Origin: a virus | Lineage: Duplodnaviria > Heunggongvirae > Uroviricota > Caudoviricetes | Direction: 5' to 3' (one strand) | Length of the DNA stretch: 64,000 bases | IMG/VR virus record: IMGVR_UViG_648028025_000010 | Program-made: the position numbers | Shown here: positions 46,501-49,500 of the stretch, in pieces | Numbering within the stretch: position 1 is the stretch's first letter | Layout of the letters: each line of letters begins with the position of its first letter

Positions 46501-49500
46501 CCAAACGGCTGCCAGCCCTCTTTCAGTTTGTGTGTCAGCTTTTCCGCAAGGTCTGACGGCGACGCCGCCCTGACAACATCATAATGTTTAATCGACATCG
46601 AATTTCTCCCGTGTACAGGAACAGAGTTAAAAAGCCGGAACCGGAATCAAATTACAGGATGGCCATCTGCCAGTGGCTGGTCGTAAAAAAAAGGCCACGC
46701 CATGCGCAGCCGGAAATAAAGGGATAACGATGATAGTTTGAGAAAAACAGAAACAACACTTTTGCGGCAAAGCATGGTGCCGGGTGCCTCCCGGTGAATT
46801 CAGTATCAGCACCTGAATCCGCGATTATCCCATATACCTGGTTGCTGATCGCCCCTCCGCACAGGGGGATTCACCATGCAGTAGTATTTTTAATAAACAG
46901 CAAATAAAAAAATCAAGCATTATGCAGGCTGTTTCTTTTTATCACCGGCCACAGCAATACCACAATGCCGCAGACCAGCACCCCATCCGCCAGCACCGAC
47001 ATGATTCTGCTGGTGAAATCCACCATCACCACCAGAAACAGCAGGAGTGCAGCCACAGCCAGGCGCAGTTTTACCGTCACTGGTGATTCTCCAGACGAAG
47101 ACCCAGAACACCGGCAATCTCTTCCAGCACCTTGCGCTCTTCCGGCTCAATTTCGCCGTCTGCCTCCGCAATGGCCACCGCCACATCCAGCACATCTTCC
47201 GCTTCACGCGTATCGTGTTTCACATCTTCAATTTCACGCAATGCCGCTCGACGACCAATTTTAAAGTTCGTATCCAGCTGACCGATAATGGTTGCGCTAA
47301 TCGCATTAATTTCTGACGTAAACGCGGACAACGCAGGCTGGTTACGCAAGATCTGCTCGATCTTCGCTTTCTCTGAAGCCTCACATTCACCATCTGCATA
47401 GGCCACCAGATAGGCAGCATTAATAACCGCCTGTGCCAGATCACGTTTCTCAAACTTTTTAATTTCCACTGCCGCTCGGCGGGCTTTTTTACCAAAAATA
47501 CCAAACATCGTGACGTTCCTTTGGGTGGGTGAGCCAACGCCCGGGAGCGATCTGCCCACAGAGAAAGTCACACTGACCACTCCGTAAGCTCACCCCCGAA
47601 AGGCTCTGTGGTTGATATGCGCCGGGCGTGGCGCGGATACAAAAAAGGCCGCCAATAGCGACCTCAGTTACGGGATTATTCTGGGGTTAAACGACTGTTA
47701 CTCCCCCCAGACAAAATCATCACTTCCTGTTCGATGCGAGCCATAGTGAACCTCGTACTTATCTCCCATCTTTCTTGCTTCCGTTTCTGCGTCTTCCTCT
47801 GTCGCAAAAACCCCAACAAGATGCCAGGGCGAGCTTCTTACCACAGCCCAACCTTTAACCCATCCTTTGTTGTCCTTATCTTCCATTAACACTTCAGAAA
47901 CAAACATATTTATCTCCTTGTGGGTACCCAGAGATATTTTATGATTGCTCCCGGTCAGATCAATAAAGTGGCTTCAATTTTGCCTTAATGATCAAATCAG
48001 GGTGATTGACGGAATCGTACACCACCTCAATATTTTCATCCGTGGCGTCGATAAGATATTCTTTTACATAAGGACCTGTTGATTTTCCATGAAATACATC
48101 TTCAACAAGTACACTCTCCCCCTGAACAACACGAAAACTAACTTCTGTTTCGAACGGACCAATCGTCACCATCAGTTTTTTCACATAGCCTCCTGATAAG
48201 CACTCGATTTATTAGTTAATGGTGTAACGCAGATACAAAAAAAGGCCCGCAAAAGCGAGCCAAGTAAATAAATATGGCGCGTTGTACTGGATTCGAACCA
48301 GTGACCGATTGCTTAGAAGGCAATTGCTCTGTCCGACTGAGCTAACAACGCATGATGCTGATAATGGACCGCCATCGGGAACTTGAACCCCGCACAGCCA
48401 GCTTCGAAGGCTGACGCTCTATCCCGATGAGCTAATGGCGGTATGTGATGGTGGCCCTTGCTGGATTTGAACCAGCGACCTGGCGATTATGAGTCGCTCG
48501 CTCTCACCACTGAGCTAAAGGGCCGGGCGCAGGATAATAACGGTACGTAACTAATTCTGCAATATCATCCGTTCTGACTGACTACATTCTGAACTTCCCT
48601 GACCGTCTGCTCAAAACGCCCGCTCTCCAGCTCAACGCCAATTGCACGACGCCCCAGCGCCATTGCTGCTTTGACGCTACGGACATAAAAAAGCCAGCCA
48701 CTGGGGGAGGCTGGCGAAACTCGTAGAGCAAAAGTGTTGTTACACTAACTTCGTCACAGGGTTATCCTGCAATACTCAAAATACACAATATTTACAAAAC
48801 TAATAGTATACAAGGCGATCTTTAAGATTTTGTTATTAATTGTGGTCGCACCTTCCTTTCTGTGTACTTTCCGTATAGCTCACAGGATTCTGGGTACAAA
48901 AAAACCCGCGCATCGGCGGGTTCTTAAATCTTATCAACGGTAGACATACAAAGCCCATCATTGGGAAAATCTTATCCATATTTTTTGAAAAATGCAAGCA
49001 TCATGTCGTCATCTTCGGCGAAAACCATTTATCTTGTCACCTTTCTCAATTGTATCTCTGCATATGCTTCTTCCTGCCAGCACTTTGTAACCAGTTTATC
49101 AATGACATCTGCATATCCTTTGTACCACTGATAATCCGTCAGGTCTGGTACCAGCTTCTGGACATGAAGCCGCGCCAGTGTGGTTGGTAAACTGCTAAAC
49201 CGGTTTCCATTGCAACGCCCACAAACCTTATAAACAGGCGTGCCATGAAGCCGGGTTCTTTTTTCATCCAGGACAATACCTTTACCCTTGCACCCTCTGC
49301 ATGCTGTGCTGACTTCTCCCTTACCATGACAATGCTGACATAGTTCCTTCACCCACTCTTCCTTAATAACAGATTCCCCGCTTCTGGAGTGTTTCACCAC
49401 CTCGCGCAATACATTATGAAATCCAGTACCAGCACAATGCTCACAGCGAGCCTTACTTGCCGCAGACCTGGAATAATCAGCAAAGGCAAAATTCACAAGG

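Follow-up and report, generated by a model that had tools for sequence, protein, structure and literature searches.

Two separate two-gene cassettes fill the stx cargo slot in the late operon of an Escherichia coli O26:H11 prophage

Lambdoid phages that carry the Shiga toxin (Stx) genes harbor stxAB in their late operon, between a tRNA trio of the ileZ-argN-argO type and the nanS-p esterase gene. Which genes stand at this position in a related prophage without stxAB, and what could they do? The question is raised by a stretch of 64,000 nucleotides (the window) of the IMG/VR virus record IMGVR_UViG_648028025_000010 (Caudoviricetes), which is 100% identical to E. coli O26:H11 str. 11368 (NC_013361.1) and many related O26 genomes. 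The region in question is the late operon of a lambda-like prophage, encoded on the minus strand, and contains four small open reading frames (ORFs): ORF74 and ORF69, named after their lengths in amino acids (aa), a gene for a TerB-domain protein (TerB) and a gene for a 55-aa peptide of the DUF3927 family (DUF3927). These genes were found to form two two-gene cassettes that together take the place of stxAB. In the explanation favored here, to which a probability of roughly 55% is assigned, both cassettes are lytic-phase cargo expressed under control of the late antiterminator Q, TerB acts at the membrane together with DUF3927, and ORF74 and ORF69 take part in phage-host conflict.

The slot is defined by homology breakpoints with the Stx2a phage Stx2_EH1846, phage Evi, and JLK-2012. 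In blastn comparisons with Stx2_EH1846, window positions 48228-48675 (the tRNAs and the sequence upstream of them) and 46773-46897 (inside the small RNA (sRNA) gene STnc100) match at 90-97% identity, with no match in between, and the interval between the matching flanks holds stx2A and stx2B in the Stx2a phage. Since homology stops at 48228 and resumes at 46897-46773, the four-ORF block is exactly replaced by stx2AB. An earlier note on this DNA had assigned the block to the stx locus and denied the presence of any StxA/StxB-like ORF; the breakpoints at both ends of the block bear out the former claim, and a tblastn search of the whole window with Stx2A and Stx2B, which yielded no matches, the latter. 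The cargo slot extends from the terminator 3' of argO to the start of STnc100 (Table 1), in agreement with the extent proposed in that note. By sequence comparison, the block thus delimited is best described as an exchangeable cargo (moron) slot of the lambdoid late operon, which bears stxAB in Stx phages. None of the 131 TerB-positive phage records is Stx-named, in keeping with the view that the slot holds either stx or TerB/DUF3927. Induction leads to mass production of the cargo that lambdoid phages carry 3' of Q, most famously Shiga toxin. The default occupant of the slot in non-Stx prophages of enterohemorrhagic and enteropathogenic E. coli (EHEC and EPEC), where a genome can contain as many as 10 copies, is TerB with its membrane hairpin. 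In phage 434, this slot encodes a 247-aa protein with multiple transmembrane (TM) segments and no Pfam match, followed by DUF3927 and a 62-aa membrane protein; TerB is absent.

The genes had been described as one cargo block. This holds in so far as all four together fill the slot, whereas the block consists of two independent, separately mobile cassettes, ORF74-ORF69 and TerB-DUF3927, each closed by its own intrinsic terminator (three such terminators lie in the block region, Table 1). In phage Evi, the tRNAs are joined straight to the TerB leader with a single copy of the terminator, and homology to the window ends at 48228. In JLK-2012, a different tRNA set (Asn, Thr, Gly) is joined to tciA-tciB, the homologues of the TerB and DUF3927 genes. 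ORF74-ORF69 is flanked by two imperfect direct-repeat copies (47625-47668, matching 48221-48265) of about 45 bp, about 80% identical and 597 bp apart, which comprise the terminator hairpin and TTTTTTGTATCYGCG. Because of these terminator-bearing copies on both sides, ORF74-ORF69 is interpreted as a separate 597-bp insertion that brought or duplicated a terminator, and it would be the later arrival in the slot. Their prevalence differs as well, by over an order of magnitude. Among 5426 complete E. coli genomes, 840 carry TerB-DUF3927, with 3939 matching places (median 6, maximum 10 per positive genome); the rarer ORF74-ORF69 has 130 matching places in 110 E. coli genomes (including O26, O145, O103, and some EPEC), and the full four-gene arrangement is present in 93 genomes only. 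The sole other place found with both cassettes as neighbors is a metagenomic contig (L010, Logan SRR10254147, 1-6000), which shows the order SIR2-like gene, TerB, an unannotated DUF3927 ORF (2561-2713), P22-type antirepressor, ORF74-like gene, ORF69-like gene, Band_7 gene, and Acb2/Tad1-hairpin gene.

All four ORFs were found on the minus strand where the earlier note had placed them and correspond to RefSeq coding sequences (CDSs) with identical ends in O26:H11 str. 11368. As also claimed there, each has its own ribosome binding site, a Shine-Dalgarno motif 4-7 nt from the start; direct reading of the sequence gives AGGAGG-4 nt-GTG for ORF74, AAGGAG-6 nt-ATG for ORF69, AAGGAA-7 nt-ATG for TerB, and GGAGAA-6 nt-GTG for DUF3927. 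TerB comprises 143 aa from its ATG, the mechanically called ORF extending to an upstream GTG at 47580. Coding signal and conservation are apparent from the ratios of non-synonymous to synonymous changes (dN/dS or pN/pS), Pfam matches, homologues in other genera, and AlphaFold2 models. TerB is under purifying selection, with a dN/dS of 0.06-0.08 in comparison with the homologues of phages JLK-2012 and Evi; for ORF69, a pS of about 0.9 (saturated) stands against a pN of about 0.24 in comparisons with three distant homologues. ORF74 and ORF69 have homologues of 31-67% identity in other genera, with gene order kept. That some of the ORFs are spurious or pieces of a larger gene is hardly conceivable. 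ORF74 would be the candidate, as it matches PHROG 2571 only partially (positions 100-171 of a 291-column profile) and a first search with the single sequence returned near-identical sequences only, but a three-sequence profile, by which alone the family was reached, retrieved 48 clusters of full-length proteins of 69-88 aa, and the extra PHROG columns go back to a few mis-called N-terminal extensions. Moreover, the AlphaFold2 model of ORF74 is compact and confident, its synteny with ORF69 is conserved, and RefSeq lists the ORFs as intact CDSs. The fragment reading of ORF74 was rejected on the full-length family, the model, and the synteny.

For the second cassette, the TerB-domain and two-TM assignments made from the sequence proved correct. 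TerB matches the Pfam family TerB (PF05099) with 61 bits over residues 26-138 (cut-off 24.4) and the nuclear magnetic resonance structure of Klebsiella pneumoniae TerB (PDB 2JXU_A) with an E value of 4.1e-8 over query residues 15-137. Its acidic ADG...E motifs are conserved, and it is a helical domain, which hydropathy analysis describes as soluble, acidic, and without any hydrophobic segment. DUF3927 matches Pfam PF13064 with 62 bits (cut-off 25) and displays two hydrophobic segments, with hydropathy windows at about residues 1-30 and 25-49. The overlap of its GTG start with the TerB stop codon, GTGA, is present as reported and couples the translation of both. The novelty that had been implied for this pair was overstated: it is very common and already catalogued as P1 tciA/tciB, as PHROG 632 ('tellurite resistance') and PHROG 1470 ('TciB-like'), and under RefSeq names. 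The names tciA and tciB trace to phage P1, whose GenBank notes give them 'by homology'. In comparison with the homologues of P1 and Pollock, TerB is 28-42% identical, and DUF3927 is better conserved (50-55%), with residues K4, R6, D21, F22, S24, S28, D32, G33, P45, and K48 invariant. Judged by these similarities, TerB and DUF3927 are to be regarded as the lambdoid counterpart of P1 tciA/tciB, a common and already annotated pair.

A TerB gene with a DUF3927 gene immediately behind it in the same orientation was found in the window, P1, the virulent phages Pollock (N4-like) and ChrisDB (an Erwinia jumbo phage), JLK-2012, Evi, and contig L010; relatives of Pollock carry the pair as well, and Klebsiella siphophages have it as adjacent genes. 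In P1 it lies inside the C1-repressed ban operon between tRNA-Asn/Thr and tRNA-Ile2, in Pollock in the early/middle region, and in ChrisDB between tRNA genes. Its retention by P1, N4-like, and jumbo phages points to a widespread phage function. The pair stands beside phage tRNA genes in four unrelated phage types, i.e. P1 (L007, 1849-3509), JLK-2012 (L002, 5375-6369), ChrisDB (L014, 586-2814), and the window (46913-48524), and the tRNA-Asn and tRNA-Thr neighbors are common to JLK-2012 and P1. This adjacency could reflect a shared exchangeable module or merely a common accessory island. In Vibrio phage vB_VpaP-MS02 (L016, 78-1626), a gene for a TerC/Alx-family membrane protein is located directly upstream of TerB; this parallels the association of TerB with TerC in ter operons and speaks for a membrane partner of TerB. 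None of the genes terZ, A, C, D, and E is adjacent to TerB in the window, where the Pfam and RefSeq neighborhood consists of tRNAs, two small ORFs, DUF3927, and the esterase, and tblastn with P1 TciC gave no match in the window below E = 1. P1 tciA, tciB, and tciC are described as non-essential in a CRISPR interference screen (PMC10695390). No functional study of TciA/TciB or DUF3927, or of TerB in a prophage, moron, or defense setting, was found in the searchable literature.

The products of the first cassette are both acidic and soluble, without signal peptide or TM segment. The AlphaFold2 model of ORF74 is a six-strand beta-sandwich (predicted local distance difference test score (pLDDT) 91) with generic structural neighbors only, that of ORF69 a small beta-beta-alpha-beta protein (pLDDT 89) without significant structural neighbors. 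An ORF74-like gene directly upstream of an ORF69-like gene was found in phage mEp237, a Xenorhabdus prophage, and contig L010, the pair of mEp237 lying after the lysis genes with 35% (ORF74) and 65% (ORF69) identity; homologues of ORF69 at 60-70% identity occur in Xenorhabdus, Salmonella, and mEp237. The ORF69 homologue of Pseudomonas phage YMC11/02/R656 showed no ORF74-like gene upstream of it, and the pairing is so far confined to Enterobacterales contexts plus one metagenomic contig of unknown origin. As a solitary gene, a paralogue of ORF74 with 41% identity directly follows Rz in Stx2a, Stx2c, and Stx1a phages, where it occupies a second position for cargo in the late operon; in Stx2_EH1846 (L004, 7001-7225) it overlaps the end of Rz. 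A toxin-antitoxin reading of ORF74/ORF69 was rejected on intergenic gaps of 52-75 nt without overlap and the lack of a family match.

What the first cassette might do is suggested by the relatives of ORF69. The resemblance to DUF2188 that the earlier note had considered was not recovered, as neither ORF69 nor any of 13 family members matches Pfam DUF2188 at E values up to 0.1. ORF69 matches only DUF7336 (PF24024), with 17 bits and thus below the cut-off of 25; 6 of the 13 family members match DUF7336 at E 0.002-0.1. An exhaustive profile search collected 289 representative proteins of the ORF69 family, most of them free-standing and 60-80 aa long. About 30 of the best 150 are longer, with the domain mostly at the C-terminus, and the N-terminal partner is TIR_2 in P0080 and P0090, Trypsin_2 in P0114, P0116, P0148, P0180, and P0212, Mrr_cat in P0141, and Imm53 in P0208. 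In the aligned fusions (P0080, P0090, P0114, P0116, P0141, P0208, P0212, and two without a Pfam domain), the domain is 35-52% identical to ORF69; two of the five Trypsin_2 fusions (P0114 and P0116) were counted as aligned, the other three coming from the profile search. Acb2/Tad1-hairpin genes were found near an ORF74/ORF69-like pair in two contexts. NCBIfam and PADLOC returned no meaningful matches for the small ORFs. The N-terminal partners in these fusions are of the kinds typically found as effectors or immunity proteins in bacterial conflict systems. On this basis, ORF69 is proposed to act in phage-host conflict, and a role of ORF74/ORF69 in defense or counter-defense is plausible. A more specific proposal, tentative and rather unlikely as a whole, is that ORF69 would be a phage-borne, free-standing version of the adaptor or sensor domain of bacterial TIR, protease, and Mrr immune effectors and, together with ORF74, would either disarm an undescribed family of defense proteins as a decoy or be sensed by it as a trigger; TerB and DUF3927 would separately constitute a pan-phage lytic membrane module common to temperate, virulent, and jumbo phages and linked to tRNA islands.

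The expression of the block was inspected by a promoter scan. The earlier note had placed the genes under Q antitermination; the sequence is consistent with this in that a candidate pR' and tR' lie downstream of Q, and the transcription itself is retained here as a prediction. Both cassettes would be transcribed from pR', and only when Q enables RNA polymerase to pass tR' and the terminators that follow it, and it is because of this predicted read-through that the cassettes are viewed as lytic-phase products and probably represent Q-dependent accessory genes. A sigma-70 consensus scan of the region gave 7 sites versus a mean of 7.3 in shuffled sequence. Within the block, the minus strand shows a single match, a weak one (9 of 12, 47963-47936) in the 3' end of ORF74, from which ORF69 could be transcribed; the scan detected no promoter-like site upstream of ORF74 or TerB, the stretch between the terminator 3' of ORF69 and the TerB start included, and by eye only poor -10 elements were seen in the two leaders. 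Independent cassette promoters were rejected, given no excess of sites over the shuffles and the one weak match in the block. Lytic-phase expression agrees with the presence of the TerB-DUF3927 pair in virulent phages and in the repressor-controlled P1 operon, which counts against a purely lysogen-protecting role.

Directly 3' of DUF3927 lies STnc100, a known sRNA that had been overlooked. It matches Rfam RF02076 with 102.4 bits (gathering score 47), and its start follows the stop codon of DUF3927 at a distance of 7 nt; the Rfam model's own 3' hairpin is unmatched, a different terminator coming next (Table 1). The 3' untranslated region of the tciAB mRNA may give rise to STnc100, or the sRNA may be transcribed from its own promoter within DUF3927. 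As a prophage sRNA it has been reported 75 nt downstream of stx2B (PMC12370729), and it is related to PasD, with the arrangement PasD/STnc100, esterase, PasA/C, holin; TerB (PF05099) is listed as a conserved neighbor of PasA/PasC (bioRxiv 10.64898/2026.05.13.724894).

Taken together, the favored explanation runs as follows. The DUF3927 hairpin, with its invariant polar residues, would dock TerB at the inner membrane, as TerC partners TerB in ter operons, and the resulting complex would condition the cell membrane during lytic growth until programmed lysis. Possible effects are ion or envelope homeostasis, or a block of superinfecting phages or pore-forming colicins; tellurite resistance conferred by TerB and DUF3927 alone would be unexpected. 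ORF69 would represent the free-standing copy of an effector-fused domain, and ORF74 and ORF69 would act in defense or counter-defense. Several points weigh against this explanation. It is adjacency alone that suggests the TerB-DUF3927 interaction, and each partner also occurs by itself: phage 434 (L013, 1612-2844) has DUF3927 behind the 247-aa multi-TM protein without TerB, so DUF3927 can pair with other partners, and in Pseudomonas phage AF no DUF3927 was detected with TerB, an adjacent unannotated 73-aa ORF showing only one hydrophobic segment. Since each of these phages carries one partner, the pairing is frequent, not obligate. A search of PADLOC-DB v2 gave no defense-family match for any of the four proteins, with chance-level hits only (E at least 0.0056). 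The promoter scan is a crude match to the sigma-70 consensus and may have missed a promoter used in the lysogen if this is weak or not of the sigma-70 type, and the weak site at 47963-47936 might drive ORF69 alone. STnc100 copies are transcribed in uninduced EHEC EDL933 (PMC5331693), from which it follows that some transcription reaches, or starts near, the 3' end of the cassette in lysogens. Finally, the searchable literature yielded no experimental work on any of the four proteins.

The transcription of STnc100 without induction is also one of the arguments for a different assignment, in which the cassettes are switched on in the resting lysogen and, in the manner of lambda rexAB or sieB, protect the host from other phages or from colicins, a role reminiscent of the Phi and PacB phenotypes of the ter operon. 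According to the summary in PMC7371120, the literature connects the TerB of terZABCDE with inhibition of phages and resistance to colicins, and EHEC genomes keep a median of 6 copies of the pair per genome. Such defense by lysogenic conversion is nevertheless considered unlikely: terminators stand upstream of each cassette, a promoter-like site is missing ahead of TerB and ORF74, PADLOC offers no match, and the pair resides in the C1-repressed operon of P1 and also in N4-like and jumbo phages, whose strictly virulent lifestyle leaves no lysogen in need of protection.

Less probable still is a module for lysis timing, in which the DUF3927 hairpin, regulated by TerB, would modulate the holin encoded a few kb downstream in an antiholin-like manner. 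The position of the pair, shortly before the holin-endolysin genes of the late operon, would fit, as would the holin-like size of the two-TM hairpin and the place of the phage 434 DUF3927 among small membrane proteins ahead of the lysis genes, but the pair is found away from lysis genes in P1, Pollock, and the Erwinia jumbo phage and lacks sequence similarity to holin or antiholin families. A true determinant of tellurite or metal resistance is very improbable. The Pfam domain, the homology to K. pneumoniae TerB, and the conserved acidic motifs speak for it; the absence of adjacent terZ, A, C, D, and E speaks against it, the P1 name was given explicitly 'by homology', and in the ter operon of R478 and EHEC tellurite resistance needs several ter genes, terB alone being insufficient.

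The features of the region are compiled in Table 1. On the minus strand, a DUF968 gene is followed by Q, the candidate pR' and tR', the methylase remnant, the three tRNAs, the two cassettes (ORF74, ORF69, TerB, DUF3927), STnc100, the nanS-p esterase gene, and the holin/endolysin genes. The mechanical ORF of Q encodes 264 aa, the RefSeq start lying at 49781, and ARAGORN labels the tRNA-Ile2(CAT) as Met. Stx phages harbor an intact copy of the same DNA methyltransferase gene between Q and the tRNAs. Just 3' of the holin gene, the ORF list contains an uninterrupted 263-aa ORF at 43299-44090 (minus strand), of which only the first 249 nt (43842-44090) are annotated in RefSeq, where they are labeled an incomplete pseudogene of DUF1327. 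Elsewhere in the prophage, nleC, which encodes a type III effector, lies beside the tail-fiber genes (about 17200-18200) and a gene for a PerC-family regulator near the terminase (40675-40990), and the prophage adjoins a Qin-like remnant with relBE, hokD, dicB, and ydfD.

Table 1. Features of the late operon around the cargo slot, in order of transcription (window coordinates)
Feature	Position	Strand	Evidence
Late antiterminator Q	49029..49823	-	Pfam Antiterm PF03589 E 2.5e-52; PHROG 127; RefSeq 'antitermination protein'
Candidate late promoter pR' (TTGCAT, 17-nt spacer, TAAGAT)	48969..48997	-	Predicted, read by eye; absent from consensus scan output
Candidate tR' terminator (AACCCGC-loop-GCGGGTT, then T run)	48898..48922	-	Predicted, read by eye
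Putative second hairpin and T run between Q and tRNAs	48687-48715	-	Predicted, read by eye
DNA methyltransferase remnant, 114 nt	48565-48678	-	RefSeq pseudogene, N-terminus missing
tRNA trio, ileZ-argN-argO type: CAT (Ile2), TCG (Arg), TCT (Arg)	48275..48524	-	ARAGORN; Rfam tRNA; RefSeq tRNA-Ile, Arg, Arg
Intrinsic terminator 3' of argO, upstream border of cargo slot, copy 1 of duplicated sequence	48244..48261	-	Terminator scan; repeat families D1 and D3; alignment
ORF74, GTG start, first gene of cassette 1	47960..48184	-	RefSeq CDS with same ends
ORF69, second gene of cassette 1	47698..47907	-	RefSeq CDS with same ends; PHROG 4280 full length
Intrinsic terminator 3' of ORF69, copy 2 of duplicated sequence	47645..47665	-	Terminator scan; repeat analysis
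TerB-domain protein, 143 aa, TciA homologue, first gene of cassette 2	47077..47508	-	Pfam TerB; PHROG 632
DUF3927 peptide, 55 aa, TciB homologue, second gene of cassette 2	46913..47080	-	Pfam DUF3927; PHROG 1470
STnc100 sRNA, downstream border of cargo slot	46736..46905	-	Rfam RF02076
Intrinsic terminator 3' of STnc100, upstream of esterase gene	46693..46711	-	Terminator scan
nanS-p type sialate O-acetylesterase (DUF1737 + SASA + DUF6645), next late gene	44748..46598	-	Pfam; RefSeq

Neither cassette changes current concepts, and no new kind of system is demonstrated. The ORF74/ORF69 half of the block is modestly new, its domain fusions offering a possible new link of phage accessory genes to TIR, protease, and nuclease immune effectors, and the TerB/DUF3927 half is ordinary. 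Both can be placed among known systems. The closest in position is the stxAB locus, which shares the slot and its surroundings (Q, pR'/tR', ileZ-argN-argO, cargo, STnc100, nanS-p esterase, lysis genes) with flanks that are 90-96% identical, whereas the cargo of the window is unrelated and without similarity to Stx. The closest in content to the second cassette is tciA-tciB of P1, in which a TerB-family gene (42% identity) is likewise followed by a DUF3927 two-TM gene (50%) with abutting or overlapping stop and start codons. Both loci lie beside phage tRNA genes including tRNA-Ile2(CAT), and both are regarded as repressed in the lysogen, for the window by prediction; they differ in that P1 tciC has no homologue in the window and in their control, presumably a Q-dependent late operon here versus the C1-controlled ban operon in P1. 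The TerB of terZABCDE (PDB 2JXU) has the same domain with conserved acidic motifs, but the phage protein stands without terZ, A, C, D, and E, and a 55-aa hairpin takes the place of TerC as its partner. Like the classical lambdoid morons bor and lom of lambda, the cassettes are small, terminator-bounded accessory units between essential late genes and variably present among homologous phages; unlike classical morons, which usually have their own promoter and are expressed in the lysogen, they show no evident promoter upstream of ORF74 or TerB and only a weak match before ORF69.

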